64,000 nucleotides of DNA from assembly GCA_037444365.1 (NCBI GenBank), contig JBBIMO010000002.1:7871-71870 (forward strand), read 5' to 3'. Of this stretch, positions 6,291-53,281 are shown piece after piece. Below the pieces are notes generated by a model. It searched no databases and was not told the origin of the DNA. It was given only the letters and a program-made list of their open reading frames with translations. Position 1 is the stretch's first letter. Each line of letters begins with the position of its first letter. The position numbers were made by a program, and so were the translations under genes. This stretch comes from Chloroflexota bacterium. GTDB lineage: Bacteria; Chloroflexota; Dehalococcoidia; GIF9; AB-539-J10.

Positions 6291-6411
6291 ATCACCTTCC
6301 CTCCTTCAAATTTCTTGTTGCCTTTCTAGGCAGCGACGCAAATTTTATATAATGCGCATTCTTTTAGCAATACTCTAAGACTTTCTGTTAGAATAAACGG
6401 GAGCGATACGT

Positions 6412-6645
6412 ATGTCAGCAACCGAATCACTGGCTACTGTGCGCACTTCCAGGTACATGGAGGCGCAGATAATCAAGGGACGCCTGGAGAGTGAAGGCAT
6501 ACCTGTCCTCTTGAGCTATGAGAGCGCCGGCCTGATTTATGGGCTTACGGTTGATGGATTGGGCGAGGTTAAGATAATGGTGCCCCGGCATCTGGCTGCG
6601 GAAGCCAGGGAAATCCTGGAAGTTAGTCTGGGAAGCAAAGAGTAA
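6412..6645 (+). CDS. DUF2007 (putative signal-transducing) small protein.
   Basis: It is 77 aa and resembles DUF2007 (ARxxxAEAQIIKGRLESEGIPV...). It is preceded by an A/T-rich region containing TATATAAT. Confidence 0.5.
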   Translation: MSATESLATVRTSRYMEAQIIKGRLESEGIPVLLSYESAGLIYGLTVDGLGEVKIMVPRHLAAEAREILEVSLGSKE

Positions 6646-30092: not shown

Positions 30093-30166
30093 CGGGGTGT
30101 AGCGCAGCCTGGTAGCGCACCTGAATGGGGTTCAGGTGGTCGGTGGTTCAAATCCACTCACCCCGA
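30093..30166 (+). tRNA. tRNA-Pro (anticodon GGG).
   Basis: I folded it by hand. The acceptor is CGGGGTG/CACCCCG, the D-arm is GCGC/GCGC, the anticodon stem is CCTGA/TCAGG with loop ATGGGGT, and the T-arm is GGTGG-TTCAAAT-CCACT. There is no encoded CCA. Confidence 0.85.
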
Positions 30167-35715: not shown

Positions 35716-35755
35716 CTCCCTACGATGTCAGGCTGTCTTGCTTGTACAATACTCG

Positions 35756-36277
35756 TCAACGGAGACGAGCTTCAACTTCATTTACTATAGTCTCGGCCAG
35801 CGAGTCGGGGCGGGAAAATTCCTCCGCCTCTTTCAATACAGCTTGCTTGAAATCTTCATCCCTGATAGAAACCAGATTGACTTCCACGTTTAGCAGAGCT
35901 CCCTTTACGGCTGATTCAGCCATCTTGGCTGCTACGCCGATATCAGTGATGACTCTGGGATTACAGGTCTCCAGCAAAGCCGCAGCTAGCTTGAGAACGG
36001 CGTAGCTATGTCGTGCCGTTTGCAGGGGAACCTGTGTGGCCTCTCTTAAATCACGGGCGGCGAAAGCTTTGGCGTCCTTGTCAATCAGGTCTGTCAATTT
36101 ACTCATCAATGTTCGGGCCTGTCCGGAGACGTCTTTGTTTCCGGAGAACTCGGCTGCCATGCACACGAGTCCGGCCGACAATGCTCCGGAAAGGGCGGCC
36201 ACAGAGCCTCCGCCGGGCGTCGGTTTTCTGGCTGCCAACTCCTCCAGGAATTCCTCGATGGTCAATTCTTGTAGCAT
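35756..36277 (-). CDS. Formimidoyltetrahydrofolate cyclodeaminase (FTCD C-terminal domain-like protein).
   Basis: It has 'KPTPGGGSVAALSGALSAGLVCMAA', the cyclodeaminase/cyclohydrolase family signature. I chose the start at the Met with a GAGGGAG RBS. Confidence 0.75.
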   Translation of the reverse strand: MLQELTIEEFLEELAARKPTPGGGSVAALSGALSAGLVCMAAEFSGNKDVSGQARTLMSKLTDLIDKDAKAFAARDLREATQVPLQTARHSYAVLKLAAALLETCNPRVITDIGVAAKMAESAVKGALLNVEVNLVSIRDEDFKQAVLKEAEEFSRPDSLAETIVNEVEARLR

Positions 36278-36320
36278 ACCTATATCTCCCTCATTGACTA
36301 TCCTGTCAGAATTGAGCCCG

Positions 36321-37325
36321 TTACCGGGCACCAATCAGATACTCGATGATCTTAGCCCGTGGATTGAACTCCTGAGGCGAATCAAGCTTCAGATTCCTCA
36401 CTGCCGCTTCAATGAGTTTCTTCTCCGACCTTGCTGCTGGCTGGTAGAATCTGCCTGTCTGCAACATTGCCTCCTTGGGAATCAACCCCACAATCTCGCT
36501 GCGGAGAATCCTTGCACCTCCCAGCTCACCGAGCTGTTTTATCTTCTCAAAGACGAGGTGCAGGGGAGCAACCCTGTAGTCTGTAAGGTTCATTGAGACC
36601 TCAACGACCCCCGGCTCTCCAGGTGAAATACCGACTGCCTTAACTGATTTGAAAATCCCGGGTATCATGATTTTCCCGCCATCATTTGCAGTTGACAGGC
36701 AGCCCGACTCGCGAATAATCCGGGCAATCCTGTGACCAAGCTCCTTATCAGTGGTGCCCAGGTAAACGTTATAGGCGATGAGAAACTCTCTGGCGCCGAT
36801 AACGGTGGCTCCGCTCTTCTTGTTGAAACTGGCTGGACCGTAGTCCGGCTTCCAGCGGGGGTCTCTCAGTTTTGCTTCCAGGCCCTCATACTCGCCAGAC
36901 CTGATACTGGCCAGGTCTCTTCTTTCTGGAGCTCTGGCTGCCTCCCCGTACAGAAAGACAGGGATCCGCAGCTTCTCTCCGACTTCGCAGGCAAGCTCGT
37001 TTGCCAGAGCGACGCAGTCTGCCATGGTGACATTCTGCACAGGGACAAAAGGACAGACGTCACAGGCTCCCAGTCTTGGGTGCTGCCCTTGATGTCTGGC
37101 CATGTCAATGACTTCTATTGCCCTGGCAATGGCCTTGTAGCCTGCTCTCTTGATTGGCTCCGGTCCTCCCACGAAGGTCAACACTGTACGATTGTGATGA
37201 GCATCAGGGGCCACATCCAGCAGCTTGACACCGCGAACCCTCTCAACCTCAGCAGCGATCTGCGCAATCTTAGTGGTGTCTCTGCCTTCGCTGAAGTTAG
37301 GCACGCACTCAATTATCTTTCTCAT
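36321..37325 (-). CDS. Glutamate formimidoyltransferase (FTCD N-terminal domain homolog).
   Basis: It begins MRKIIECVPNFSEGRD...NRTVLTFVG, which matches the formiminotransferase domain. Its start overlaps the hutH stop. Confidence 0.8.
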   Translation of the reverse strand: MRKIIECVPNFSEGRDTTKIAQIAAEVERVRGVKLLDVAPDAHHNRTVLTFVGGPEPIKRAGYKAIARAIEVIDMARHQGQHPRLGACDVCPFVPVQNVTMADCVALANELACEVGEKLRIPVFLYGEAARAPERRDLASIRSGEYEGLEAKLRDPRWKPDYGPASFNKKSGATVIGAREFLIAYNVYLGTTDKELGHRIARIIRESGCLSTANDGGKIMIPGIFKSVKAVGISPGEPGVVEVSMNLTDYRVAPLHLVFEKIKQLGELGGARILRSEIVGLIPKEAMLQTGRFYQPAARSEKKLIEAAVRNLKLDSPQEFNPRAKIIEYLIGAR

Positions 37326-38799
37326 AACATCCCGCCTCCTCTGCCAATCTACCACTGTGGACAAGTCCGTAGAGCTCCTCGATGTCTTCAGCCAGGACTC
37401 TGCTTTTCTCAAAATGAGTAACGCGACTTCTCACGATCTCATGAATCTTCGCCAGTGTTGACTTCTTGGGTAAGTGTTCGCGGAAGTCCAGAGCCTGAGC
37501 AGCGCACAGAATCTCGATGGCTATGACGTACTCCGCGTTCTTGCAGATCTCCCGCGCTTTGCTGACAGCCCAGGCACCCATACTGACGAAGTCTTCTTGT
37601 CCGGCTGAGACGGGAATGGAGTCAACAGAAGCGGGGTGAGCCAAGGTCTTGTTTTCGGAAACCAGAGCAGCGGCGGTATATTGAGTGATCATCAAGCCAG
37701 TGTTCAATCCCTCGTTCCTGGCTAGAAACAGAGGGAGACCGTTGCCACCGCGACCGACCAACCTATCTATTCTCCTTTCCGAAATGCCCGAGATACTGCA
37801 GAGGGCAATCGACAGACTATCGGCTGCCTGAGCCAGAATCTGACCATGGAAATTGCCGCTGCCCTGGCAGATTTCGGCTTTCGCTCCTGTGGTTGAAATC
37901 CAGGGATTGCCGCCAAAGGAGTTGATCTCGGTATCTACAACAGCTCTGGCGCGTGCAAGAATGTCCCGAAAAGCGCCGTGGACCTGAGGAATGCATCTCA
38001 GGGAATAAGCATCCTGCAATGAACAAGCCGGCTTCTTGCCCCCGCTTGTCTTGGGAAGAAGTTGGTTCAAGTAGCGGGCAGTTGTGATTTGCCCCGTATG
38101 AGGTCTCAGTTCTTGAATTGCAGGCACAAATGATTTGCTGCTGCATCCCAGAGCTTCAATGGTCATGGCGGCAGCGATATCGGCTGTTCGGATCAAGTTG
38201 TCGGACTGGAAAACCAGGAAGGCCAGACAACTTGTCATGAAGCTCGTGCCGTTAAGCAGTGCGATGGCTTCCCCGATCTGCAGCTTCGCTGGCTCCAGTC
38301 CTGCGGCAGGCAAAACTCGCTGCGGATCCTTGCCAATCAAGGCCAGGGCAATGTGAGCCTGAGGGACCAGATCGCCGCTGGCACCCAGAGACCCCTTCGC
38401 CGGGACAACCGGAATGACGTTTCTGTTGAACATCTCGACCAGGAGCTCCAGCGTCGGCAATCTTATGCCGGAATATCCTTTCCTCAGATTCAGAATCATG
38501 TGAAGCATGATGCCTTTGACTATCTCCGTCTCCAGTGGGGGGCCTATCCCACAGGCGTGGCTCATGATGAGATTATCCTGGAATTCCTCCGTTCTGCCCT
38601 TGGGAATGCGCCTGTTCAGGAGGGCACCGACGCCGGTGTTTATTGCATAGTAGGATTTGCGAGGGCTAGACCTCAGAATAGCCTCAAGAGCCATTCTGGA
38701 GCGCCTGACTCTTTCCTTGTCTCTTCTTGCTAACTCGATTGTCCTCTGGGCGCGGCACAGATCGACGAATTCGGAATAGTCCAGCTTGTCTTTTGTCAT
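37309..38799 (-). CDS. hutH: Histidine ammonia-lyase.
   Basis: It has GSLGASGDLVPQAH, the Ala-Ser-Gly MIO-forming triad. Confidence 0.9.
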   Translation of the reverse strand: MTKDKLDYSEFVDLCRAQRTIELARRDKERVRRSRMALEAILRSSPRKSYYAINTGVGALLNRRIPKGRTEEFQDNLIMSHACGIGPPLETEIVKGIMLHMILNLRKGYSGIRLPTLELLVEMFNRNVIPVVPAKGSLGASGDLVPQAHIALALIGKDPQRVLPAAGLEPAKLQIGEAIALLNGTSFMTSCLAFLVFQSDNLIRTADIAAAMTIEALGCSSKSFVPAIQELRPHTGQITTARYLNQLLPKTSGGKKPACSLQDAYSLRCIPQVHGAFRDILARARAVVDTEINSFGGNPWISTTGAKAEICQGSGNFHGQILAQAADSLSIALCSISGISERRIDRLVGRGGNGLPLFLARNEGLNTGLMITQYTAAALVSENKTLAHPASVDSIPVSAGQEDFVSMGAWAVSKAREICKNAEYVIAIEILCAAQALDFREHLPKKSTLAKIHEIVRSRVTHFEKSRVLAEDIEELYGLVHSGRLAEEAGCYEKDN

Positions 38800-39547: not shown

Positions 39548-40438
39548 CTAGGCAGCAAGTCCTGCGGCTTTCAAGATGGCGGGAACCACTTCCTCCCTGC
39601 CTATAGCCATGACATGGACTCCGTGGCACATTGAGTCTTTTTTTATGGTGGCAATCATCCTGCCAGCGATCTCTATACCCTTATTGATTGCCTCGCCTTT
39701 GGGGGCAGCCGCCAATTCGTCGATCAGGTTTTGGGGCACAATGACGCCCGGGACATTGTCCGTCATATACTTGGCCATCTTGGCTGACACAAGCAAAATG
39801 ATGCCAGCCAGTATCTTCACCGGGAATTGACGGGCATATTCCATAAACCTGGCGAATCTGTCCAGGTCATAGATGGCTTGAGTCTGAAAGAATTCGGCAC
39901 CGGCTTCAACCTTCTTTTCAAACTTCATTAACTGAGGCTCAATTGGGTTTGCTTCAGGTGTGACTATGGCTCCGGCGCAGAACTCCACGGTCCCATTGAG
40001 CGCATTCCCTCCCAGGTCTTTGCCCGATTCCATCTGCCGGATTGCCTTCAGTAACTGTGTTGAGTCCAGGTCGAAAACACCCTTAGCCCCCTTGTGGTCG
40101 CCGACTACAACAGCATCTCCGGTTAGACAGAGAACATTTCTGATGCCTCTGGTATATGCGAAGAGAAGCTCGGCTTGAAGGGCAAGGCGATTACGGTCCC
40201 GGCAAGTTATCTGTAAGATGGGCTCTCCACCCCGCTCCTTGATGTCCAGGCAGCCACCAATGGAGGGAAAGCGCATGACGGAACTCTGGTGGTCAGTAAC
40301 ATTCAGCGCGTCGACCTTGTCCTTGAGAAGGTCAATATGGTGGAGCATCTTCTCAATGTTTGTCCCCTTGGGAGGACCGATTTCGCTGGTTATCACAAAT
40401 TTGCCAGATTTGAGGACTTCCCTAAAACTCGGTGCCAT
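39548..40438 (-). CDS. metF: Methylenetetrahydrofolate reductase, acetogen/anaerobe MetF type (no C-terminal regulatory domain).
   Basis: It is about 296 aa with a TIM-barrel MTHFR sequence (VITSEIGPPKG...ITCRDRNR...LCLTGD). Confidence 0.85.
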   Translation of the reverse strand: MAPSFREVLKSGKFVITSEIGPPKGTNIEKMLHHIDLLKDKVDALNVTDHQSSVMRFPSIGGCLDIKERGGEPILQITCRDRNRLALQAELLFAYTRGIRNVLCLTGDAVVVGDHKGAKGVFDLDSTQLLKAIRQMESGKDLGGNALNGTVEFCAGAIVTPEANPIEPQLMKFEKKVEAGAEFFQTQAIYDLDRFARFMEYARQFPVKILAGIILLVSAKMAKYMTDNVPGVIVPQNLIDELAAAPKGEAINKGIEIAGRMIATIKKDSMCHGVHVMAIGREEVVPAILKAAGLAA

Positions 40439-40448
40439 AGCTCCTCCT

Positions 40449-41093
40449 TCATGTGATCCTGATCGTTCGCGGCCTGGGTGCCACGCTGTAATCTCTTGGA
40501 GAATGATGCTTGCGCATCAACTCAAGTCGTCCCTGTTCTTTTAGGCGCTGATATATGACAGCCCAGGCACAGTCCTTTGCCTTGTCCACCTCGCACTTGC
40601 CGTTATTGGTGCCTCCACACGGACCGTTCAGCAAACCCTTGTGACATGCCGTCAGAGGACAAATGCCCGCAGTCTCTCCCAGGATGCATTGACCACACTG
40701 GGCACAGACTTCCTGGAAACAGCCGGGGCCGACCTCGACACCCATGAAGAGAGTATCCAATGCGGGAATGGCTGGCTTGTCAACATAGGTGCCCAGCTTA
40801 TGCACGCCTAGAGCACAGGCCATGACCAGGATACAGGCGGCATTCTGGATGGCTCCATTATTCTCCTTAATAGCTACTGCGGTCATCTCATCGCAGGCGG
40901 TGGGGATGACTATCCAGCCGGTGACCAGCTTGCCCAGCTCTTGTAGGCGCTTCCCCATCTCCAGGACCTCCTCTTTCCCGCCAGTCCTGGTCATTGTGGA
41001 GCATGTGCCGCAACCGGCAACATACACCCGGTCAAACCCCTCTAGCTGTTGCTTGATTTCCTCAAAAGGCTTCTGTTTGGTGATAGATTTCAT
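40449..41093 (-). CDS. metV: MetV, the Cys-rich zinc-ribbon partner subunit of MetF-type methylene-THF reductase.
   Basis: It is about 214 aa with AGCGTCST...CAQCGQC...CPLTACHKGLLNGPCGG cysteine clusters. It lies immediately upstream of metF, as in acetogen metVF operons. Confidence 0.75.
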   Translation of the reverse strand: MKSITKQKPFEEIKQQLEGFDRVYVAGCGTCSTMTRTGGKEEVLEMGKRLQELGKLVTGWIVIPTACDEMTAVAIKENNGAIQNAACILVMACALGVHKLGTYVDKPAIPALDTLFMGVEVGPGCFQEVCAQCGQCILGETAGICPLTACHKGLLNGPCGGTNNGKCEVDKAKDCAWAVIYQRLKEQGRLELMRKHHSPRDYSVAPRPRTIRIT

Positions 41094-41232
41094 GTGTAAC
41101 CTCCGTATGAACTAAATCCCAAGCTCCAAATCCTAGATAAACCCAAATATCCAAATTGGAAGTCCGAGACGTGGCATCTTGGTCATTGGGATTCTGCACT
41201 TTGATATTGTCTGGCATTTAGTGCTTGGTGCT

Positions 41233-44200
41233 TCATTTCTCTAGGTCGCACCTTAAGCATCGCTTAGCCTCCTGTCTCGCCTTCTCTTCAGAGAAGCTCA
41301 GCTCTATCTCCTTGAAGCTACCTTTCCTCTCCTGGAGAGGGAGATGAGGTGTTTCTGGCCTGAGTTGTGGTTCCCAGGTTTCCTCTGCCGAGGCTGCTTC
41401 CTCGCCAACGTTCCTCGCAGTGACAGGGGACATAACGCTGGGCTTCAGGTCATACATCTCGACCCGTGAGGTATCTCCACGGAGATACTTGTCAATGGCA
41501 ATGGCTCCTCTCCGGCCAGCCGCAATAGCTTCTATAACCATACCCGGCCCGGAGACGAAGTCTCCCCCGGCAAAGATCCCGGGAACATTGGTGACCAATC
41601 TGTTTTCATCAACTGCCAGCCTTTCCCACCGGGTGCGCTCAAGAGCACTACCCGGGGGCAGGAAGGAAAGGTCCGGAGCCTGTCCCACAGCTGCAATGAC
41701 AGTTTCCGCCGGAGCAAGGAACTCCGAGCCCGAAATTGGGATTGGCCTACGGCGCCCGCCGGCGTCGGCCTCACCCAGCTTCATGCGGACACACTGTAAG
41801 CCGGTCACTTTCCAGTCGTTGCTTACTATGCGGGTGGGACTAACAAGAAAACTGACCTGAACGCCTTCAGCCAGAGTCTCATCATACTCCACCTCAGTTA
41901 CCGGCATCTCCTCACGTGACCGGCGGTAGAAGATGCTGACCTCATCAGCACCAAGGCGAAGAGCGGTGCGAGCCGAGTCCAGGGCTACGTTGCCACCCCC
42001 AATAACAGCTACCTTGCGCCCAACCTTGACAGGCTTGCCAATCTTCACATCTCTCAGAAACCTCAGGCCATAGTAGAAGCCTTCGACGTCCTCCAGTTCC
42101 CCGGGTATACCAATGTTCTGGCTTCTTTGTGCCCCGGCGGCAATGAACACAGCTTGAAAACCACTGTTTCTGATATCGTCCACGGTAAAATTCACATTGA
42201 TTGGTGTGTTGTATCTTATCTCCACGCCGCGCTTAGCGACATGATCTATCTCCTTATCGATGACATCCCGCGGCAAGCGGAAGTCGGGTATAGCTACGGA
42301 AAGCATGCCACCACCTATGGGGAGGGCTTCGAAGACAGTGACAGGATAGCCCATTTGAGCCAGAAAGTACGCGCAGGACAGCCCGGTAGGTCCCGCTCCC
42401 ACCACTGCAACTTTCTGGTTGTGAGTCCGTGGAAATGGTTCTGGTTCAGGTGATTCCCTAACGTGGTCAAAATACCAGTCGGCGGCAAATCGCTTAAGCG
42501 CCCTGATTGCTACGGATTCATCGAGTTCCCCGCGGCGACATCTCCCCTCGCAGGGGTGATGACAGATGCGGCCGCAAATGGCAGGGAAGGGATTACGCTC
42601 CCTGATCGTATCGATGGCCTCCAGGTACTCACCTGCTGAAATGTGAGCGATGTACTTGGGGACGTTTATTCCCACCGGGCAGGTATGCTGGCACGGTGAT
42701 ATCATGAGGGCATCGCACACAGCAGCCGGGCATTTCTTCTCCTTGATATGAGTCTCATATTCATCTCTGAAATAGGCAAGGGTGGTGAGCACGGGGTTGG
42801 GGCAAGTCTGTCCCAGACCACAGAGTGAGCACTCCTTAACCGTCTTGGCTATGGTAAGCAGGGTATCCATGTCCTGTTCACGCCCTTTGCCCTGAGTGAT
42901 TCTGGTCAGTATTTCCAGCATTTGTTTGGTTCCCAGGCGGCAAGGGACACACTTTCCACAGGACTCCGCTTGAGTGAAGCTCAAAAAATACTTGGCCACG
43001 TCCACCATACAGGTTGTCTCGTCCAGCACGACCATGCCACCGGAACCCATGATGGAGCCCAATTGAGCCAGCGTTTCATATTCCACCGGCGAGTCGAGAA
43101 ATCGGGCAGGGATGCAACCACCTGAAGGCCCACCCGTCTGCACCGCCTTGAATCGCTTGCCTCGTGGAATGCCGCCACCGATATCAAATATGATGGCAGA
43201 TAGGGAAGTGCCCATAGGCACCTCCACCAATCCGCTGTTGGCAATCTTCCCGGTGAGGGCGAACACCGCCGTCCCCTTGCTCTTTTCGGTGCCAATGCTG
43301 CTAAACCAATCAGCCCCGCGGTCAATGATTATGGGGATGGAAGCCAGGCTCTTTACATTGTTAATGGTGGTAGGCTGTCCATTCAGGCCTGATTGGGCGG
43401 GAAATGGGGGGCGGGGACGAGGCATGCCCCGTCGGCTCTCAATAGAAGCCATCAAGGCTGTTTCCTCGCCACAAACAAAGGCCCCCGCACCTTCCTTGAC
43501 GTGAACCACAAAATCGAAGCCTGAGCCAAGGATATTCTCTCCCAGGAAAGACATCTGTCGGGCTTGCTCTAAGGCAGTGCGAACCCGTCTTACTGCTAAG
43601 GGATACTCGGCGCGGACATAGATGTAGCCCTCGTTGGCACCTATGGCATATCCAGCAATTGTCAGTCCTTCAACAACAGCGTGGGGATCAGCTTCCAATA
43701 TGGAGCGGTCCATGAAAGCCCCCGGGTCGCCTTCATCCGCATTACAGATAACATATTTCCTTTCCCCATGAGCCCTGCGGCAAAACTCCCACTTGAGGGC
43801 AGTGGGAAAACCGGCACCACCCCGCCCGCGGAGACCAGACTTCCTCACCTCCTCAATGACCTGCTCGGGAGTCATCAACAGAGTCTTTTTCAGTGCCCGA
43901 TAACCTCCACGAGCAATATAATGCGAGATTTTCTCCGGGTTGATTTGTCCGCAGTTACGCAGGATGACACGTTGCTGTTTCCTGTAGAAGTTTATCTCTG
44001 AATAACGCGGTACGGCTTCGCCAGTTACAGGGTCATGGTAGAAAAGGCGCTCCACGGGTTTGCCATCTCGAAGATGAGAGGTGGCGATTTGCTGAGCATC
44101 CTCGGGCTGCACATGGGTATAGAAAACGCCTTCGGGTTCAACCACTACATTGGGACCCTGCTCACAGAAACCATGGCAACCGGTGAAATCCACCTCGGCA

Positions 44201-44325
44201 TGGCTAATCCTATGTTGTCTTATTGCTTCCCTGATCGCCTCATAGACGGCATCGGAGCCGGTGGAAACACATCCCGTTCCCTGACAGACAAAGACAGTAT
44301 GATGGTCTTTCATTCTATCTTTCAC
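41233..44325 (-). CDS. Fusion protein with three parts: an N-terminal thioredoxin-like [2Fe-2S] domain, a NuoF/HydB-like NAD(P)H-FMN-[4Fe-4S] domain, and a C-terminal GltD/NfnB-like NAD(P)H:FAD oxidoreductase domain.
   Basis: It has GLRGRGGAGFPTALKWEF (the NuoF FMN site). It has a C-terminal Fe-S pair CPVGINVPKYI...CGRICHHPCEGRC followed by VAVVGAGPTGLSCAYFLAQ (FAD) and VAVIGGGNVALDSA (NAD(P)) Rossmann motifs. Confidence 0.8.
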   Translation of the reverse strand: MKDRMKDHHTVFVCQGTGCVSTGSDAVYEAIREAIRQHRISHAEVDFTGCHGFCEQGPNVVVEPEGVFYTHVQPEDAQQIATSHLRDGKPVERLFYHDPVTGEAVPRYSEINFYRKQQRVILRNCGQINPEKISHYIARGGYRALKKTLLMTPEQVIEEVRKSGLRGRGGAGFPTALKWEFCRRAHGERKYVICNADEGDPGAFMDRSILEADPHAVVEGLTIAGYAIGANEGYIYVRAEYPLAVRRVRTALEQARQMSFLGENILGSGFDFVVHVKEGAGAFVCGEETALMASIESRRGMPRPRPPFPAQSGLNGQPTTINNVKSLASIPIIIDRGADWFSSIGTEKSKGTAVFALTGKIANSGLVEVPMGTSLSAIIFDIGGGIPRGKRFKAVQTGGPSGGCIPARFLDSPVEYETLAQLGSIMGSGGMVVLDETTCMVDVAKYFLSFTQAESCGKCVPCRLGTKQMLEILTRITQGKGREQDMDTLLTIAKTVKECSLCGLGQTCPNPVLTTLAYFRDEYETHIKEKKCPAAVCDALMISPCQHTCPVGINVPKYIAHISAGEYLEAIDTIRERNPFPAICGRICHHPCEGRCRRGELDESVAIRALKRFAADWYFDHVRESPEPEPFPRTHNQKVAVVGAGPTGLSCAYFLAQMGYPVTVFEALPIGGGMLSVAIPDFRLPRDVIDKEIDHVAKRGVEIRYNTPINVNFTVDDIRNSGFQAVFIAAGAQRSQNIGIPGELEDVEGFYYGLRFLRDVKIGKPVKVGRKVAVIGGGNVALDSARTALRLGADEVSIFYRRSREEMPVTEVEYDETLAEGVQVSFLVSPTRIVSNDWKVTGLQCVRMKLGEADAGGRRRPIPISGSEFLAPAETVIAAVGQAPDLSFLPPGSALERTRWERLAVDENRLVTNVPGIFAGGDFVSGPGMVIEAIAAGRRGAIAIDKYLRGDTSRVEMYDLKPSVMSPVTARNVGEEAASAEETWEPQLRPETPHLPLQERKGSFKEIELSFSEEKARQEAKRCLRCDLEK

Positions 44326-44803
44326 CCTCCCGCTTCCTGAATAGTTGCTCCACCTTCTTAGGGTTCATGTGACCATGGACGTGGTCACTGACGACTATAT
44401 TGGGGGCTAGGGCACAAACGCCGATGCAGGCCACAGTTTCCAATGTGTATTCCCAATCAGGGCTGGTCTCCCCCTCTTCTATGCCCAGGTGTTGCTTAAC
44501 CAATTTCAATATCGTCTTTCCCCCCCGCACATGGCAGGCAGTTCCCCGACACACTCTGACAACCTTTCTGCCGCGTGGCTGCGTATAAAGCTGAGTGTAA
44601 AAGCTAATCACTCCCTGCACCTGGCTGGGGAAAAGCCCCAGGCTTTGGGCGATGAGTGGTATAGACTGAGGCGGTATGTAGCCGAACTTGCCCTGGATCT
44701 CCTGCAGCAGCGGTATGAGAGCCCACTTTCGCTGACTATGCTCAGCAACAAGGGCTCTTATTCGTTCCATGTCGATCTCTCTAGCTATTTCTGCTCCATC
44801 CAT
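44315..44803 (-). CDS. NuoE-like [2Fe-2S] thioredoxin-fold subunit (24-kDa subunit family).
   Basis: It has CRGTACHVRG...ACIGVCALAPNIVV (the NuoE Cys4 pattern). I chose the start at the Met with an AAGGAG RBS (the track ORF starts at a GTG at 44884). Confidence 0.8.
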   Translation of the reverse strand: MDGAEIAREIDMERIRALVAEHSQRKWALIPLLQEIQGKFGYIPPQSIPLIAQSLGLFPSQVQGVISFYTQLYTQPRGRKVVRVCRGTACHVRGGKTILKLVKQHLGIEEGETSPDWEYTLETVACIGVCALAPNIVVSDHVHGHMNPKKVEQLFRKREGER

Positions 44804-44847
44804 CTCCGCTGACTCCTTCGCTTCATTGTGAACAAAGCTCATCTCCT

Positions 44848-47565
44848 TCAGGCGGTAGGGAGCTTCTCTATCCTCACGCTGCACGCTTTCAGTGACGGTG
44901 CTTTTGTGTGACGATCTAGGATAATGTCAAATAGCGCATTGACCGGAGTTTCTGGGAATGAAATCGGCATGAAGAGCATGCCTTCGGGCAGTGTATTGGT
45001 GATCCTGACCCTCGCCATCACCTTGCCTACAGGTGACGTTACGTTGACCATCTCGCTGTTGGTGATGGCAAGCTCTCTGGCATCCGGCTCACAAATCTCC
45101 ACAAAAGCCTGGGGGCAGAATTTCCTTAACCGTGCAGACCGGGAGCTTCTGGAGCCCGTGCCGAAATGATTCAATATCGTCCCGGCGATCAAGGTGAAGG
45201 GATAGCCTCTCTTTCCCTCGGCAGGTGGAACATACTCAACCGGACAGAAGCGGGAAAAGCCCGCCGGGAACTGGCCGCCATGTATGCGACCGACTCCTCG
45301 GTGGCCACTCGGGTCAGCCCCATACAGGCTCTTTGCTTCTGACTCAATATAACCATTCTCTTCATATGAACTGTAGGCTGGTAGCTGAGAGCAGCTGATT
45401 ATCTCGTCCATAACTTGCTGGGGAGAGGAATATGGCATTGGAGTCCCCATCTTGTCGGCGAGTCGCAGGATAATCTTCCAATCTGGCAGGCTGTCGCCCA
45501 TAGGGGGGATTGCCGGCTGCACCTTTTGGATACTTCCTTCGAAGTTAGTGAATGTCCCCTCCTTTTCAGCGAAGCTTGCGGCTGGCAGGACTACGTGAGC
45601 CAATTTGGCCGTCTCGGTGAGGAACATATCCTGGACCACGAGGAAATCAACGGAAGCTAGAACCCCTTGAATGAAATTCGACTTTGGAAAGCTCAAGACA
45701 GGGTTTTCTCCCACGATATACACAGCTTTGATCTTTTGTTTCTCTATCTGTTCCATGATCTCCAGAGCCGTCAGCCCGGCTTCAGCCGGCAGACTCACTT
45801 TCCAACGTTCCTCGAACTTTTTCCTGGCTTGGGCATCCACCACGCTCTGATATCCAGGCAGGAATCCGGGCAATGTTCCCATGTCGCAGGCACCTTGCGC
45901 GTTGTTTTCTCTTTGCAGGGCATAGATGCCGCCTCCTCTGCGCCAGATGTTTCCCGTCAGCAACGCCAAATTTGCCAGAGCTTTCACTCCGTCTGTTCCT
46001 GTAATGTGCTGTGTGACTCCTGTGCCATAGACGATTGCTGCCTGGTTAGCCTTGGCGTACAGTCGAGCGGCGTCACGAATTGCCTCGCCCGGAACACCGG
46101 TGACCTTCTCGACGTACTTCAGGCTGTACCTTTTCAGGCTTCTGTCAAAGGCGTCGAAATTGTCTGTCCTTCTGGTGACGAATTCCTCGTCCAGCAGACT
46201 TTCGTCAATAATCACCTTGGCTAAGCCATTTATCAGAGCCAGATCAGTGCCAACTTTGGGTCTTAACCAGAGATGGGCAAACAAGGAGAGCTTTGTCTGC
46301 CGGGGGTCTATCAGCAATAATTTGACGCCATGCTGTTTGACAGCACGCTTTATGGCGTAGCCGATGGCGGGGGCTGAGGCATCAGGATCAGCCCCAATGA
46401 CTAACAGGAGCTCCGATTGCTCTAGATCCCTGAGACAATCTGTTGTGCCCAAAGAACCCAGCGATGACGCTAAACTGATACGACTGGCACAGTTGTACGA
46501 GCGACTGCCATTATCAATATTGTTGGTGCCCAGGACAGCTCTGGCGAATCTCTGCAAGAGGTAGTTCTCTTCGTTAGTGCACTTGGAAGAGCCTAAGATG
46601 GCCAGGCTGTCGGCGCCATATTCATCTTTCATCCGCCGGAATTGTGTAGCTACCAGTTGCAGGGCTTCATCCCACGATGATTCCTCGAAACCACCCATGT
46701 TCCTGACCAGAGGTTTGAGTAACCTATCCGGGCTATGGACAAAATCACAGCCATAGCTTCCCCTCACGCAAAGCGTACTTCTATATACCGAGCCTTGCTT
46801 GCCTGGCGTGGCTCGCACTACACGTCCATTCCTAGCTTCCAGGTAGATACTGCAGCCGCAACCACAGAAGGGACAGGTTGTCCGCGCAACACTCTGGGTT
46901 GTCCCTCCAAAGATTCTCTCCTTTTCTGTCAATGCGCCTGTAGGGCAGAGTGCCACGCAAGTTCCACAAAAGGTGCACTCGGAGTTTTCCAGCGGCAGGT
47001 TGCCCAGCGTCGCCGGTATGGTCGCAAATCCCCGTTGAAAGTAATCAATAGCGCCTTCAACAACCAGATCCTGACAGGCCCGAATACATTTGGCGCACAG
47101 TATACACTTGCTCAAATCCCGCTCGAGGAAGGGGTTGACTTCCTCAATGCTGGCCATGTGTGGAATCCTTTGTAGATTCACCAGGCCGATGCTCAGGTCG
47201 GCAGCAATCTGTCGTAGCTGACACCGATTACCTTTATCGCATACCAGGCAAGAATCAGGATGGCTGGCGAGCATCAACTCGACTACGGTTTTGCGGCGCT
47301 CTATGACTCTGGGGGAATGTGTGTTGATTACCATTCCCGGCGCTATCGGGGCGACACAGGATGCTAGTAGAGCCCCATTCTGTTCATTCTCTACCAGACA
47401 GACGCGGCAGGCCCCGACTGATGCGAGCTGAGGGTCATGACAGAGAGCGGGAATGTTTATGCCGGATTCCTTTGCCAGTTCCAGAATGGTCATCCCGGGA
47501 TAGCCACTCACCTCACGCCCATCGAGAGTAATGGTTATCGCCTGCAAACCAATATCCTCCTTCAC
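44848..47565 (-). CDS. FdhF/NuoG-like molybdopterin oxidoreductase. It has an N-terminal 2Fe-2S domain, a His-Cys3 4Fe-4S site and 2x[4Fe-4S] domains. It is the 'formate dehydrogenase alpha'-like subunit, but the canonical Sec/Cys-His active-site motif is absent.
   Basis: It is strongly FdhF-like (NEENYLLQRFARAVLGTNNID...NNAQGACDMGTLPGF). At the position of FdhF 'RV-U-HGPS' it reads 'RSYNCAS'. There is no in-frame TGA. Confidence 0.75.
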   Translation of the reverse strand: MKEDIGLQAITITLDGREVSGYPGMTILELAKESGINIPALCHDPQLASVGACRVCLVENEQNGALLASCVAPIAPGMVINTHSPRVIERRKTVVELMLASHPDSCLVCDKGNRCQLRQIAADLSIGLVNLQRIPHMASIEEVNPFLERDLSKCILCAKCIRACQDLVVEGAIDYFQRGFATIPATLGNLPLENSECTFCGTCVALCPTGALTEKERIFGGTTQSVARTTCPFCGCGCSIYLEARNGRVVRATPGKQGSVYRSTLCVRGSYGCDFVHSPDRLLKPLVRNMGGFEESSWDEALQLVATQFRRMKDEYGADSLAILGSSKCTNEENYLLQRFARAVLGTNNIDNGSRSYNCASRISLASSLGSLGTTDCLRDLEQSELLLVIGADPDASAPAIGYAIKRAVKQHGVKLLLIDPRQTKLSLFAHLWLRPKVGTDLALINGLAKVIIDESLLDEEFVTRRTDNFDAFDRSLKRYSLKYVEKVTGVPGEAIRDAARLYAKANQAAIVYGTGVTQHITGTDGVKALANLALLTGNIWRRGGGIYALQRENNAQGACDMGTLPGFLPGYQSVVDAQARKKFEERWKVSLPAEAGLTALEIMEQIEKQKIKAVYIVGENPVLSFPKSNFIQGVLASVDFLVVQDMFLTETAKLAHVVLPAASFAEKEGTFTNFEGSIQKVQPAIPPMGDSLPDWKIILRLADKMGTPMPYSSPQQVMDEIISCSQLPAYSSYEENGYIESEAKSLYGADPSGHRGVGRIHGGQFPAGFSRFCPVEYVPPAEGKRGYPFTLIAGTILNHFGTGSRSSRSARLRKFCPQAFVEICEPDARELAITNSEMVNVTSPVGKVMARVRITNTLPEGMLFMPISFPETPVNALFDIILDRHTKAPSLKACSVRIEKLPTA

Positions 47566-47598: not shown

Positions 47599-48426
47599 TT
47601 ACTTGGTTCTGCCTAGGCCTTCCGGCCAGTTTGCAGACACGTAGGCAAAGGACGGCGGGAAATATCTTCCTTCGCCTACTGTCCTTATGCCGGTCAAGAG
47701 ATCAGAACTGGCAGCATTCTTGGCGATGAAGCCGTAAGCCCCAACCTGCTTGGCAACAAACATATTCTCCTCTTCGTCATATTGGGTTAGAATCAGAACT
47801 CTGGTGTCGGGGTATTCCGCGGTTATTCGTTTCGTTGCTTCAAGTCCGCTCATCACCGGCATGACTATGTCCATCACCGTTACATTCGGCCTAAGACGTT
47901 GCACCTTATCAATGGCGTCTCTCCCGTCAACTGCTTCACCCATTACTTCAATGTCTTTTTGCAGGCTCAGCAGGGCACGAATTCCTTCCCTGACTACAGA
48001 GTGGTCGTCTACCACCAGCACCTTGATTCTTCTAAGTGTCTTGTCCAGGAATTTCTCAGCCCAGGCTACTACCGAAGCTAACTCGACTGGCTTGATTAAG
48101 TATTGTTCAGCCTCGAGCTTCAAACCTTCATCCATACGCCAGCCCTTGAGCAGATGCTTTTCCGGCGGGGCGTCCACCACGATGAGGGGCACCTGTCTGA
48201 AGTCGGGGCTTTGTTTGAACCACTGGTGTAACTGGAAGGCATCGCCACGCGGCATTATAGTGCCCAAAATGATCAGGTCAGGTTTTTCCCGGCGCGCTAC
48301 CTCCTCCGCCTGTGATTTGTTGCCGGCAGCAAACACCCGCCAATTCTTTGCCACCAATTTGGCTTGCATGTCCGCGACAAAGTCGGGTTCATCATCTACT
48401 AGCAGAATTTTGGTACTTCTTTCCAT
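47599..48426 (-). CDS. Tandem receiver-domain (REC-REC) response regulator without an output domain.
   Basis: It has two CheY-like modules (ILLVDDEPDF...D...K and VLVVDDHSVVREG...MDIVMP...K). The second is NarL-like but has no HTH. Confidence 0.7.
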   Translation of the reverse strand: MERSTKILLVDDEPDFVADMQAKLVAKNWRVFAAGNKSQAEEVARREKPDLIILGTIMPRGDAFQLHQWFKQSPDFRQVPLIVVDAPPEKHLLKGWRMDEGLKLEAEQYLIKPVELASVVAWAEKFLDKTLRRIKVLVVDDHSVVREGIRALLSLQKDIEVMGEAVDGRDAIDKVQRLRPNVTVMDIVMPVMSGLEATKRITAEYPDTRVLILTQYDEEENMFVAKQVGAYGFIAKNAASSDLLTGIRTVGEGRYFPPSFAYVSANWPEGLGRTK

Positions 48427-48645: not shown

Positions 48646-49299
48646 TCAGACTGCGATAATGCCCTTCTTCAGGGCATATTTGAACAAGTCGAGGCGGTTG
48701 TGGATATCCAGTTTCGCCATCAAGTTAGTCTTGTGTCTTTCCACGGTCTTGGGACTGATGATCAGCATTTTGGCTATCTCGTGAGTAGAGTGGCCTTCCG
48801 CCAGGAGTTTCAGTATTTCCCTCTCCCGGTTGGTAAGTTGCTGGGACGTGTCCTGGCTTCTTCCTACTCTGGCCATCTGACGATAGTCTTCGACTAAGAG
48901 TCTGGCTATGGAAGGAGAGAGGAAGGAATCACCACGGTACACAGACCGGATCGCAGAGGTAAGTTCTGAGGAGGCTGCCATCTTGCTGATGAAACCACTG
49001 GCTCCAGCTTCGATTACGGGCAATACGTACTCTCTGTCTTCATATTGAGTCAGTACTATCACCTTTGTCTGCGGGGACTCCTTGTGTATGCGGCGGGTTG
49101 ATTCCAGTCCGTCCATAAGAGGCATAGCGATATCCATAAGCACCACGTCGGGCGCAAGCCTCTTGACCAGCTCCAGCGCCTCCCTGCCGTTGGTGGCTTC
49201 GCCCACTGCTTCTATATCGCCGGTAAGAGCCAGCAAGGCGCAGATACCATCACGCACAATGGCATGATCGTCAGTCACCAGCACTCTTATCTTTCCCAT
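48646..49299 (-). CDS. NarL/FixJ-family response regulator (REC + LuxR HTH).
   Basis: It has VLVTDDHAIVRDG...LTNREREILKLLAEGHSTHEIAKMLIISPKTVERH. Confidence 0.9.
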   Translation of the reverse strand: MGKIRVLVTDDHAIVRDGICALLALTGDIEAVGEATNGREALELVKRLAPDVVLMDIAMPLMDGLESTRRIHKESPQTKVIVLTQYEDREYVLPVIEAGASGFISKMAASSELTSAIRSVYRGDSFLSPSIARLLVEDYRQMARVGRSQDTSQQLTNREREILKLLAEGHSTHEIAKMLIISPKTVERHKTNLMAKLDIHNRLDLFKYALKKGIIAV

Positions 49300-50575
49300 A
49301 TCTAAGCTCTTGACCTATTGGAATCCTGGCCCAAACCGTGGTTCCCGCTCCAATCTTGGACTCGACGCCACTCGTGCCGCCGAGAAAGCCGATCCTCTCT
49401 CTCATGCTGAACAACCCACGGCCTCGCCCAGTTTCCTCTACGTCAGTGAGTCTGGAAACATCAAATCCCTGTCCATCGTCTCGAATAGTCAACGAGAACT
49501 CGTCTGGTTGATACGCCAGGACTATGGAGACGTTCTTTGCCTGAGAATGCTTGATAATGTTGCCAACGGAACCCTGAATAACGCGAAAGAGAGCAGCTTC
49601 CACATCAGGAGGAAAGCGCATTTCAGTCCCTTTCAGCTCCACTGAAGCGCTAATGTTCAGGGGCTGGAGAGTGTTCTTGACGTGTTGGCGAGCAGCAGCG
49701 ACTAACCCCAACGTATCCAGGACAGTAGGGTGGAGGTTGGAAATCACCCTGCTTACCTCCTTGTGTACCTGCACTGTCAGCGCCTGGACTTTCTTTAGTC
49801 CAGCGATAAGCTGAGTGTCCGGATTGGCGGACTTTGAATAGATTTCTATCAACGCTTCCAGCTGAAGTGCTATGCCGGAAAGCGATTGACTGGTCTCATC
49901 GTGTAGCTCACGGGCGATCCTTCGCCGTTCTTCCTCTTCGGCTACAAGGTTCTGTCGCGCAAGCTTGCGTAGTCTTTCCCGCGCTTTTCTCAGCCGCTCG
50001 TAGAGCATTGCCTGCTCAATAGCTGTGCCAAGCTGGTCTCCAATCGTGTGCAGGAGATGCACATCTTCTTTGGTGAAGCGATGCGGCACATGGCTGGCAA
50101 CATTCATCACTCCCAGGACGGTATCTTTGGCTCGCAGGGGGACGCTCACAAACGCCCTTAGACCTTCTGAACCTATCAAGTCAAGCCGGGCGGCAGACGG
50201 CTCCGATGAAATGTCCTCCAGCAGCACTGACCTGCCGCTTTGGGCTACCTTTCCCGCAATTCCCTCGCCAAGTTTAAGGTGCATCTCTTCAGCATACTTA
50301 TCAGACAGACCGTGATAAACTCGATAGGACAGCATCTGACTCGATTCACTCAGCAGCATTATTCCCCCGACAGTCCCATTCATGATATTGAGCACATTGT
50401 CGAGGCCGATTTTGAGAATAGTGTCTAAGTCCTGCAGACCGCTGATTGCCGCCGAGACTCGACTCAAAGCCACAAGGTCATTGTAGTGTTTCTCAGCCTT
50501 GTTGCCTTGATCAGACAGACTCGTGTCAGGACTAGCTGAATCGGGGGCTTGATTGACTCCCTTGCCATTTTTCAT
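49271..50575 (-). CDS. GAF-domain sensor histidine kinase (HisKA_3/NarX-type).
   Basis: It has a GAF region followed by ARELHDETSQSLSGI (the His box of the HisKA_3 family) and an HATPase G-box. It overlaps the response regulator start by 29 bp. Confidence 0.8.
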   Translation of the reverse strand: MKNGKGVNQAPDSASPDTSLSDQGNKAEKHYNDLVALSRVSAAISGLQDLDTILKIGLDNVLNIMNGTVGGIMLLSESSQMLSYRVYHGLSDKYAEEMHLKLGEGIAGKVAQSGRSVLLEDISSEPSAARLDLIGSEGLRAFVSVPLRAKDTVLGVMNVASHVPHRFTKEDVHLLHTIGDQLGTAIEQAMLYERLRKARERLRKLARQNLVAEEEERRRIARELHDETSQSLSGIALQLEALIEIYSKSANPDTQLIAGLKKVQALTVQVHKEVSRVISNLHPTVLDTLGLVAAARQHVKNTLQPLNISASVELKGTEMRFPPDVEAALFRVIQGSVGNIIKHSQAKNVSIVLAYQPDEFSLTIRDDGQGFDVSRLTDVEETGRGRGLFSMRERIGFLGGTSGVESKIGAGTTVWARIPIGQELRYGKDKSAGD

Positions 50576-50903: not shown

Positions 50904-50995
<92 letters not shown>

Positions 50996-50996
50996 G

Positions 50997-51084
50997 CGGA
51001 GAGGGTGGGATTCGAACCCACGCTCCGATATAATCGGAGACCGCTTTTCGAGAGCGGCACCATAATCCTCTCGGTCACCTCTCC
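50997..51084 (-). tRNA. tRNA-Ser (anticodon CGA), class II. No CCA is encoded.
   Basis: The reverse complement has acceptor GGAGAGG/CCTCTCC, anticodon stem CCGCT/AGCGG with loop CTCGAAA, and the same T-arm. A single nucleotide separates it from the other tRNA-Ser. Confidence 0.8.
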
Positions 51085-53280: not shown

Positions 53281-53281
53281 A

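Follow-up and report, generated by a model that had tools for sequence, protein, structure and literature searches.

Four architectures of methylene-tetrahydrofolate (methylene-THF) reductase (MTHFR) have been described: MetF alone (type I), MetVF (type II), MetVF-RnfC2 (type III), and MetVF-HdrCBA-MvhD (type IV; PMC8760232). Type I MetF uses NAD(P)H, MetVF-type enzymes have no NAD(P)H site and recruit NADH-binding partners, namely RnfC2 (type III) or HdrA (type IV), and type II MetVF works alone with reduced ferredoxin in vitro (PMC8760232). Energy coupling at this step has been debated since 1977, as has the way in which methyl-THF is oxidized when the Wood-Ljungdahl pathway runs in reverse; no energy is conserved by types I and III, reduced ferredoxin seems to be wasted by type II, and for type IV a second acceptor has yet to be identified (PMC8760232). 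Here, we analyzed a 64-kb stretch of DNA from a Chloroflexota bacterium (contig JBBIMO010000002.1, positions 7,871 to 71,870; hereafter the window), in which five genes on the minus strand encode MetV and MetF together with three proteins that belong to none of these types. The operon probably encodes a previously uncharacterized form of MTHFR, in which MetVF would receive electrons from NAD(P)H by way of a hydrogenase-like flavin/Fe-S module and a formate dehydrogenase (FDH) stripped of its active site. The cluster comprises, in the order of transcription:

44848..47565, minus strand: putative pseudo-formate-dehydrogenase alpha subunit (pseudo-FdhA; BfuA/NuoG-like), 905 aa (Pfam, TIGR01591, PDB matches)
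44315..44884, minus strand: NuoE/BfuC-like [2Fe-2S] subunit, longest open reading frame (ORF) 189 aa (PF01257, NF005722)
41233..44325, minus strand: NuoF-GltD fusion, 1030 aa in a single reading frame (Pfam, NCBIfam, translation)
41094..41232, minus strand: intergenic spacer between the fusion gene and metV, 139 nt
40449..41093, minus strand: MetV, 214 aa, Cys-rich Fe-S/Zn subunit of MetVF-type MTHFR (PF12225)
39548..40438, minus strand: MetF, 296 aa, catalytic subunit, acetogen/MetVF type (PF02219)

All five ORFs are present at these coordinates, and Pfam and NCBIfam profile searches bear out the domain calls that a first-pass annotation had made for each of these co-directional genes. Its description of short or no gaps fits most of the cluster, in which the genes are closely packed; the sole larger gap is the 139 nt ahead of metV. 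The true NuoE start is probably the ATG at 44803 (162 aa) and not the GTG at 44884, because the NuoE homologs of related genomes measure about 161–162 aa. For the fusion, too, a later codon is the probable start, namely the ATG at 44313 (1026 aa), since this is the form found in the protein database. The nearest relatives that bear names are metagenome-assembled genomes (MAGs) of Dehalococcoidia and Chloroflexota, from which we take the organism to be probably a Chloroflexota bacterium of the Dehalococcoidia type.

The evidence that sets this cluster apart begins with its first protein. The 905-aa product contains Fer2_4, NADH-G_4Fe-4S_3, 4Fe-4S dicluster, Molybdop_Fe4S4, Molybdopterin (2.3e-69), and Molydop_binding domains, with an N-terminal [2Fe-2S] cluster, a His-ligated [4Fe-4S] cluster, two [4Fe-4S] clusters, and the Molybdop_Fe4S4 cluster; Pfam detects no Pyr_redox domain in it. 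Its score of 681.6 bits on TIGR01591 (FDH alpha) places it in that family, marginally over the 666.25 cut-off, and its homologs carry the public annotation "formate dehydrogenase alpha subunit". The nearest full-length PDB relatives are B. subtilis YjgC (590 bits), R. capsulatus FdsA, and FdhF of the hydrogen-dependent CO2 reductase (HDCR), with E ~1e-170 for FdsA and other solved FDHs. We found no in-frame stop codon in the ORF, and therefore the protein contains no selenocysteine (Sec). In an alignment with 7qv7_S, 9t1s_L, and 9wxb_B, which read CARLCH or CARLXH, the window protein reads GSRSYN, such that the Sec/Cys-His pair of FDHs (U/C140-H141 by E. coli FdhH numbering) is replaced by Tyr-Asn. 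Where FDHs carry PLRGQNNVQG, it has ALQRENNAQG, and the catalytic Arg of the PLRG(Q/H)NNVQG motif, Arg333 of FdhH, has become Gln. Both replacements are held across 120 homologs (at least 72% identity), the consensus of which reads GGRLYNSAS and ALQRENNGQG; the Cys that the window protein has two positions downstream is not conserved among them. Every ortholog checked that is encoded together with metVF in other genomes (metVF-linked; see below) is without the Sec/Cys-His pair and the Arg, the latter position being Gln or Ala. The Desulfobacterota orthologs are further degenerate, with Ser/Ala-Gly in place of the pair and Ala in place of the Arg. The formate coupling proposed in the first-pass annotation does not survive this comparison, and the "FdhF-like" protein is, as judged from its residues, not a formate dehydrogenase.

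To describe the extent of this loss, we compared 13 metVF-linked sequences with 9 canonical neighbors at the columns that are invariant in real FDHs. The metVF-linked proteins retain 88–95% of these columns in the N-terminal Fe-S region and 46–75% in the pterin domain, compared to a leave-one-out baseline of 88–100%; the window protein by itself retains 93% and 68%, respectively. Altogether, 31 FDH-invariant positions of the pterin domain are lost in both phyla, among them the Lys that lies between pterin and 4Fe-4S cluster and has become Arg, and several His and Arg conserved in canonical FDHs are gone. This loss suggests that the Mo/W-bis-pyranopterin cofactor may be gone as well. The cysteines of all five Fe-S clusters are kept, one of them being replaced by Asp in some lineages, whereas Cys353, Cys/Sec357, and Cys751 are missing in 13/13 metVF-linked sequences. 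The position that changes to Asp is Cys164 (window ~nt 47074-47076), a ligand of the 4Fe-4S dicluster, which is Cys in the window protein and in all canonical FDHs aligned, and Asp in L006, L007, L012, and all five Desulfobacterota pseudo-FdhA; such proteins may hold an Asp-ligated or a 3Fe-4S cluster. The two parts of the protein also differ in conservation. In real FDHs, identity is 0.45 in the Fe-S domain and 0.57 in the pterin domain, and the order is reversed in pseudo-FdhA, both within Chloroflexota (0.75 and 0.61) and between the phyla (0.56 and 0.36). Because the Fe-S domain is the better conserved one, opposite to FDHs, selection appears to act on an electron wire and not on catalysis. 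The constraint would thus have moved from the catalytic site to electron transfer, and we propose that pseudo-FdhA serves as an electron wire or scaffold.

The second and third proteins carry the marks of a bifurcating core. NuoE matches PF01257 (2Fe-2S_thioredx; 1.6e-45) and NF005722 (score 151 versus a cut-off of 141), and its translation shows Cys-x4-Cys...Cys-x3-Cys. The fusion yields a weak N-terminal 2Fe-2S_thioredx match followed by Complex1_51K (5.8e-46), NADH_4Fe-4S, Fer4_20, and Pyr_redox_2 (1.3e-33). Its residues ~6-94 form a [2Fe-2S] domain (B5) with four Cys intact, and residues ~118-533 form the NuoF/BfuB core, which holds the flavin mononucleotide (FMN)/NADH site, cluster B1 ([4Fe-4S]), and site B2 (Zn). 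The NuoF half contains the motifs GRGGAGFPT, CNADEGDPGAF, GAGAFVCGEETAL, and ESCGKCVPC...SLCG. With FMN/NADH and B1 in the fusion and the C1 [2Fe-2S] cysteines in NuoE, the flavobicluster set B1-FMN-C1 (PMC11829005) is complete. The B2 site of BfuB is formed by Cys, Cys/Thr, His, Cys, and Cys, and its His is reported to occur in nearly every bifurcating BfuB and to be missing from non-bifurcating homologs (PMC9304861). In the fusion, C439/T477/H526/C532/C537 align to C438/C476/H525/C531/C536 of A. mobile HydB (7t2r_B). Moreover, the best PDB matches of the NuoF half are bifurcating subunits, namely 7t2r_B (A. mobile NiFe-HydB; 1e-236), 7q4v_B and 8a6t_B (HydB of A. woodii and T. kivui), 9bov_B and 9n5u_B (the NuoF-like B subunits, NfnB), and S. 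ovata StnB (8oh5_B). The NuoF half thus looks like a bifurcating BfuB/HydB subunit in sequence. The A1 [2Fe-2S] and A2-A4 [4Fe-4S] clusters expected of BfuA are found in the FdhA-like protein, with all ligand cysteines conserved.

The homology to HydB stops at about residue 541. From ~543 onward the fusion is of the GltD/NfnB type, with Fer4_20 followed by flavin adenine dinucleotide (FAD)/NADPH domains, the Fe-S cysteines, the FAD motif GAGPTG, and the NADPH-type motif GGGNVA...YRRS. A PDB search matches this half to the GltD domains of 9bov_A and 9n5u_A (NfnA) and of 8oh5_C (StnC). The C-terminal B3/B4 ferredoxin-type domain of BfuB, the proposed ferredoxin site (PMC11829005), is absent, and the GltD/NfnB domain stands in its place. 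The fusion carries a second, NADPH-type nicotinamide site in addition to the B1-FMN-C1 core motifs. In a search of representative proteins, full-length fusions made up about a dozen clusters at 50% identity. Many proteins of 640-660 aa match fusion residues ~410-1026; to judge by the stretch that they match in this search, which carries no annotation, they are possibly SfrB-like.

The last two genes encode a MetVF-type enzyme. MetV matches PF12225 (8e-35) and is Cys-rich, and metF starts 10 nt past the metV stop. MetF matches PF02219 (2.9e-41) and scores 80 bits on TIGR00676, the NAD(P)H-type MetF, below the cut-off of 293.7. Adjacent metV and metF with a MetF outside the type I family define the MetVF-type MTHFRs (types II-IV; PMC8760232). 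The remark of the first-pass annotation that MetF-type reductases cannot use NAD(P)H is correct for this type and does not extend to type I (PMC8760232). Among the five proteins MetF is the most conserved, with 70-76% identity to its Desulfobacterota orthologs. A Pfam scan of the larger ORFs of the window found no RnfC, Hdr (CCG), or FlpD domains, that is, none of the partners of types III and IV.

We looked closely at the junction before metV, where a transcript boundary would separate metVF from the upstream genes. A site scan of the 139-nt spacer found no promoter-like or terminator-like sites, the spacer folds no better than shuffled sequence (z = -0.09), and an Rfam scan of the whole window returned tRNAs only, with no family in the spacer. 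When aligned to the longer spacers of relatives, the spacer is not conserved, and only the ribosome-binding site and the start codon are kept. Eight loci have a junction of -29 to 13 nt at this place, two have one of ~50 nt, and in three it measures 139-155 nt. No sign of a boundary was thus found in sites, folding, or junction lengths. In L012 and L015, the frame of the fusion is interrupted, its GltD part aligns only to ~12500, and a gap of ~550-600 nt precedes metV; these interruptions could be frameshifts, pseudogenes, or assembly errors.

To determine whether the arrangement recurs, we scanned one genome per GTDB species with a 3-sequence alignment as query and examined the best 80 of at least 596 candidate loci, covering 10 kb on either side of each and assigning partners by tblastn with Pfam spot checks; two further loci (L083 and L084) were compared as well, and all genomes compared are MAGs. 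About 70 of the 80 loci carry the full-length fusion, and they span Chloroflexota, Desulfobacterota, Firmicutes, Acidobacteriota, the Planctomycetes-Verrucomicrobia-Chlamydiae (PVC) group, Bacteroidota, a Promethearchaeota (Loki) archaeon, and others. The order pseudo-FdhA, NuoE, NuoF-GltD, MetV, MetF is found in the window and eight further Chloroflexota loci (L001-L007, L012), in six Desulfobacterota loci (L008-L011, L013, L015), in a complete 4.99-Mb Desulfobacteraceae MAG (L083, CP070700.1), and in a Desulfatiglans MAG (L084). Three more contigs end inside the fusion gene, namely L017 and L037 of Chloroflexota, which show the first three genes only, and L023 of Desulfobacterota. Apart from a dedicated two-component system, the flanking genes are unrelated between loci. 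The genetic tie between MetVF, the NuoE/NuoF/NfnB-like module, and the FdhF-like protein, suspected in the first-pass annotation, is therefore upheld by an order that recurs in two phyla with different flanks. NuoE precedes the fusion in every locus of the census, and within the metVF-linked clade MetV always adjoins the fusion gene, while the catalytic partner varies:

About 15 loci: [FeFe] hydrogenase HydA
About 14 loci: [NiFe] hydrogenase
6 loci: glutamate-synthase-like protein
L016, L030, L044: Hdr-like proteins
L018, L021, L022, L025, L035: canonical FDH
Window, L001-L013, L015, L083, L084 (L017, L023, L037 cut off): pseudo-FdhA upstream plus MetV-MetF downstream

This pattern marks the NuoE/NuoF-GltD pair as a module with exchangeable partners, the partner slot of which is filled by MetVF in the metVF-linked clade. 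The state of the FDH-like active site follows the same division. Ten loci contain FdhA, NuoE, and NuoF without metV, five with the fusion and five with an unfused NuoF. All ten keep CARLCH or CARL-TGA-H (selenocysteine), and nine show PLRGQNNVQG, the contig of the tenth (L035) ending ahead of that motif; one of them, L018, has metF. The correlation is perfect in that all metVF-linked FdhA are degenerate and all metV-less FdhA are canonical at Cys/Sec-His. In a neighbor-joining tree of 64 fusions, the metVF-linked sequences form a single clade with a Chloroflexota and a Desulfobacterota branch. Since the sister of this clade is a fusion linked to a Sec-containing FDH, the tree points to an ancestor that was linked to a true FDH and recruited MetVF, the FDH site then decaying. 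Many substitutions are common to both phyla, which fits a single origin followed by transfer between them.

Two loci pair MetF with the module in other arrangements and thereby support the link between the two. In L018 (5562-15775), a Dehalococcoidales MAG, acsD (CdhD) is followed by a short opposite-strand ORF, MetF, DUF3786, NuoE, NuoF-GltD, and a canonical Cys-type FdhA; here MetF is joined to the module with a real FDH, and the DUF3786 protein replaces MetV. L044 (7467-18791), from an uncultured bacterium, encodes an HdrC-like protein, HdrB (CCG), a 325-aa NuoE-domain protein, the NuoF-GltD fusion, a 1101-aa NuoG-N-terminal/HdrA-like flavoprotein, MvhD (FlpD), MetV, and MetF, and appears to mix type IV (Hdr) MTHFR partners with a Bfu-like module. 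By this comparison, the pseudo-FdhA form is one among several solutions. In the wider set of loci L026-L070 (for example L027 9407-14859, L055 9381-15764, and L045 9433-15345), NuoE and NuoF-GltD are followed by an [FeFe] hydrogenase (Firmicutes, PVC, others), by a [NiFe] hydrogenase (Acidobacteriota, others), or by a small 2Fe-2S protein and a glutamate-synthase-like protein (including the Loki archaeon). These widespread loci seem to form a branch of the Bfu-type enzymes that is linked to NADP(H) and has not been catalogued.

The methylene-THF/methyl-THF couple lies at about -200 mV, well above NAD(P)H. In the mechanism that we propose, NADH would bind at the FMN of the NuoF (BfuB-like) half, where the NuoE [2Fe-2S] cluster, the NuoF [4Fe-4S] cluster, and FMN would form the B1-FMN-C1 set that is bifurcating in HydABC hydrogenases and in NfnABC/Stn. 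NADP(H) would bind at the FAD of the GltD/NfnB-like half, located where other BfuB carry the ferredoxin-reducing B3/B4 clusters. Electrons would pass from NADH/FMN via B1 to the A clusters of pseudo-FdhA (the BfuA wire with its five Fe-S clusters), and on via MetV to the MetF flavin and methylene-THF. The reduction of methylene-THF by NADH is exergonic and would likely be coupled in this way to an endergonic reaction on the GltD arm, in which ferredoxin or NADP+ is reduced. In the opposite direction, the oxidation of methyl-THF, by itself endergonic, would be pulled by a low-potential donor. Desulfobacterota of this type are expected to oxidize acetyl-CoA via the reverse Wood-Ljungdahl pathway. 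Domain content, intact cofactor motifs, the loss of the FDH site, the gene order in two phyla, and modular partner swapping are observed; the physical complex, the route through pseudo-FdhA, energy coupling, stoichiometry, and direction are what we infer from sequence. The strongest of the inferred steps is the wire argument. Because GltD sits on BfuB and not on BfuA, the conserved A chain would end nowhere without a docking partner, and MetVF would be its terminal partner, being the only co-conserved candidate.

On balance, we lean toward a fifth, Bfu-type MTHFR architecture that is driven by NAD(P)H and possibly energy-coupled. The narrower version, in which this would be the first MTHFR on a Bfu (HydABC/NfnABC) core and split the electrons of NADH between methylene-THF (through the dead-FDH wire) and ferredoxin or NADP+ (through the GltD arm), is possible but remains tentative. 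In favor of the general reading we count, besides the recurring gene order, the correlation with the degenerate FDH site, the shift in constraint, the wire argument, the B2 site, the partner swapping, the single clade, and the short junctions described above, the habit of MetVF-type enzymes of recruiting partners such as RnfC2 and HdrA (PMC8760232) and the detection of fdh-nuoE-nuoF-metVF products in a metaproteome (PMC5080403). Several points weigh against it. The physical complex is predicted from the genes, for which co-transcription by itself is weak support, and the window has its 139-nt gap ahead of metV. In S. ovata, the stn genes adjoin metVF, yet Stn was purified without MetVF (PMC7483475), and the domain inventory of pseudo-FdhA, NuoE, and the fusion equals that of Stn/NfnABC, a stand-alone transhydrogenase with an inactive FDH-like domain. 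Ferredoxin coupling is uncertain because the canonical ferredoxin-binding B3/B4 domain is missing from BfuB. A new function of the pterin domain is conceivable, since it is still moderately conserved within each phylum (~0.55-0.61 identity) and both phyla share Gly->Arg and Gln->Glu replacements beside the lost Arg. Finally, the tree is without bootstrap support, and the best matches of the protein search contained no cultured host, only MAGs.

The main rival, which is serious because of the S. ovata precedent (PMC7483475), holds that the operon encodes two enzymes, a domain-permuted Stn/NfnABC-type NADH/NADPH/ferredoxin transhydrogenase and an independent type II, ferredoxin-dependent MetVF, merely co-regulated because both serve one-carbon (C1)/redox metabolism. 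We consider it somewhat unlikely. The first three genes do supply the exact Stn domain set (NuoE, NuoF, GltD, and a NuoG/FDH-like dead domain), StnB/StnC (8oh5) and NfnABC (9bov, 9n5u) are among the best PDB matches, StnC is likewise annotated as FDH without having FDH activity and is encoded next to metVF without forming a complex (PMC7483475), type II MetVF is active by itself with reduced ferredoxin in vitro (PMC8760232), and the 139-nt gap would suit two units. However, in Stn/NfnABC the GltD domain lies in BfuA and feeds the A chain, whereas here it lies on BfuB, and the fully conserved A1-A5 chain would have no redox site at its end if no partner docked. Furthermore, degenerate FdhA occurs only with metVF, and in two phyla; in most loci the fusion gene directly adjoins metV or overlaps it; and other NuoE/NuoF-GltD loci always have a catalytic partner gene next door. 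Far less probable is an active NAD(P)+-dependent or bifurcating FDH (FdsABG, Moorella NADP-FDH, or Fdh-Bfu type) that possibly feeds formate electrons to MetVF. The TIGR01591 score above its cut-off, the full-length alignment to FdsA and other solved FDHs, the annotation of the homologs, and the true FDHs in closely related NuoE/NuoF-GltD loci would all suit it, but the changes from Sec/Cys to Tyr, His to Asn, catalytic Arg to Gln, and pterin/4Fe-4S Lys to Arg do not, and these are held in 120 homologs, are yet more severe in Desulfobacterota (Ser/Ala-Gly, Ala), and come with the 31 pterin-domain positions lost in both phyla. We rejected an active FDH and a formate-coupled MTHFR on these catalytic residues. 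It is also improbable, if less so, that the FdhA-like domain has acquired a new catalytic function at a remodeled pterin/metal site, coupled to NAD(P)H instead of or besides MTHFR. Strong conservation of the Tyr-Asn and Gln-Arg-Glu replacements within the Chloroflexota clade, the Arg and Glu beside the lost catalytic Arg in both phyla, and a pterin domain that is not freely decaying (~0.6 identity within each clade) speak for such a function. Against it, the former metal-ligand position differs by phylum (Tyr versus Ser/Ala/Tyr) with no Cys, Sec, Ser, or Asp ligand conserved, several of the His and Arg residues that canonical FDHs conserve have disappeared, and the gene neighborhood offers no candidate substrate. 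A plain respiratory NuoEFG was rejected, as no membrane Nuo genes lie nearby and the B2 site and the GltD fusion are present.

Upstream of the cluster lie three regulatory genes, all assigned by Pfam:

49271-50575, minus strand: GAF histidine kinase
48646-49299, minus strand: LuxR-type response regulator
47599-48426, minus strand: double-receiver protein

In Dehalococcoidia, the same kinase/LuxR/double-receiver set accompanies the cluster, preceding it in L001, L002, L003, L005, L007, and L017, and in L037, the 5' end of which is cut off, the double-receiver gene alone lies within the contig. The Desulfobacterota clusters have a different two-component pair, a PAS kinase and an HTH-REC regulator. 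Directly upstream of pseudo-FdhA, Desulfobacterota also encode an extra 291-aa MetF paralog (L008-L010, L013, L083 at 5741-6616, and L084), which is ~28% identical to the window MetF and scores ~62 bits on PF02219; the Chloroflexota clusters are without it. On the other side, directly downstream of metF, the window contains a complete histidine-utilization (hut) set (32774-38799, minus strand):

37309-38799, minus strand: hutH
36321-37412, minus strand: formiminotransferase
35756-36334, minus strand: formimino-THF cyclodeaminase
34024-35715, minus strand: urocanase
32774-34027, minus strand: imidazolonepropionase

These genes would supply formimino-THF and methenyl-THF to the same C1-THF pool. 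We rejected a functional link to the hut genes as a conserved feature, since no relative checked has them adjoining the cluster; the adjacency may be relevant in this organism. The longest formiminotransferase ORF (TTG start) overlaps hutH by ~100 nt, and the true start probably lies further downstream because the Pfam match begins at residue 33. At 52402-55380 on the plus strand, 2 kb past the kinase gene, lie 2-oxoacid:ferredoxin oxidoreductase genes (POR gamma with a 4Fe-4S delta domain, then the POR_N/PFOR_II alpha and the thiamine pyrophosphate-binding beta subunits), which might provide reduced ferredoxin locally. A tandem pair of 88-nt tRNA genes, one base apart, occupies 50908-51084 on the minus strand between the kinase and Na+/Ca2+ exchanger genes, and three further tRNAs of the window lie at 30093, 52226, and 55559.

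For the debate on energy coupling, the cluster offers a concrete candidate, with MetVF beside a module that bears bifurcating-core sequence marks and two nicotinamide sites, in lineages dominant in anoxic sediments (Dehalococcoidia, Desulfobacteraceae, and Desulfatiglans-type bacteria). If a bifurcating MTHFR is indeed built on a Bfu core, it would be the energy-coupled MTHFR step that has long been sought for the Wood-Ljungdahl pathway, and by running it in reverse, subsurface Dehalococcoidia and Desulfobacterota could oxidize methyl-THF. Metabolic reconstructions that count the members annotated as "FDH alpha" as FDH would be wrong because those checked are without the catalytic residues. 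The NuoF-GltD fusion, in turn, is a widespread partner-swapping module for hydrogenases, FDH, Hdr-like, and glutamate-synthase-like proteins.

How, then, does the locus relate to described systems? None of the types I-IV holds a NuoE, NuoF-GltD, or FdhA-like subunit (PMC8760232). As in the type III MetF-MetV-RnfC2 of A. woodii and the type IV MetFV-HdrCBA-MvhD of Moorella thermoacetica, the latter likewise suspected of bifurcation (PMC8760232), a MetVF core has an NADH-oxidizing flavin/Fe-S partner encoded next door. Unlike in either, the predicted partner is neither RnfC2 nor Hdr/MvhD and would be a Bfu-like module of three proteins, in which two nicotinamide sites are combined with a dead FDH. 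The closest match in parts is Stn/NfnABC of Sporomusa ovata, Caldicellulosiruptor saccharolyticus, and Thermococcus sibiricus (PMC7483475, PMC11829005, PMC9304861), which shares the NuoE-like subunit, the NuoF-like subunit with a B2 site, the GltD/NfnB-like FAD/NADPH domain, and a NuoG/FDH-like subunit with an inactive pterin domain, and the structures of which rank first or close to first among the PDB matches of both fusion halves. The first-pass annotation had left room for the first three proteins belonging to a characterized complex, and they do resemble Stn/NfnABC as well as the Moorella NADP-FDH beta subunit and SfrB; they are a domain permutation and not a member of these. In Stn, GltD is inserted into the NuoG-like subunit, whereas the corresponding window subunit has no such insertion and GltD replaces B3/B4 at the NuoF C-terminus. 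In addition, the window FDH-like domain is far closer to real FDHs (590 bits to YjgC), and MetV and MetF are conserved members of the cluster.

The BfuABC enzymes (HydABC [FeFe], NiFe-HydABCSL, and Fdh-Bfu; PMC9304861, PMC11829005) share with the window system BfuC (NuoE), a BfuB with B5, FMN, B1, and the B2 His/Cys, a BfuA with A1-A5, and a modular catalytic partner. They differ in the C-terminal B3/B4 4Fe-4S domain, a defining domain in the family survey, which is replaced by GltD here. That survey lists the types FeFe, NiFe, Nfn, Fdh, Por, Codh, F420, Wor, Bam, Rub, Mbh, and Nuo, contains no MTHFR-linked type, and never mentions MetF or methylene-THF (PMC9304861). It picked BfuB by the ferredoxin-type 4Fe-4S domain (PMC9304861); GltD fusions would therefore be excluded, and the published census appears to have missed a widespread fusion. 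An FdhA-type subunit paired with a GltD-like NADPH/FAD/Fe-S subunit is also known from the Moorella thermoacetica NADP-FDH (FdhA with an SfrB-like beta subunit) and Geobacter SfrAB; by comparison with these enzymes, which we take by description, the window GltD part carries a complete NuoF module and comes with a NuoE subunit. The alpha subunit of the Moorella enzyme contains Sec, whereas the window FdhA is without catalytic residues. The literature on Chloroflexi, serpentinite acetogens, syntrophic acetate oxidizers, partners of anaerobic methanotrophic archaea (ANME), and Dehalobacteriia describes Hdr-type MetVF or FdhA-NuoEF complexes and not the arrangement of the window. The only prior mention that we found is a single sentence in Frank et al. 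2016 on an fdh-nuoE-nuoF-metVF cluster of an uncultured Firmicute, all products of which were detected in the metaproteome (PMC5080403). The label undescribed in the first-pass annotation is thus nearly right, a cluster of similar gene content having been noted in that one sentence. In conclusion, the cluster probably represents both a new MTHFR architecture and a new arrangement of a Bfu-like module, assembled from known parts.

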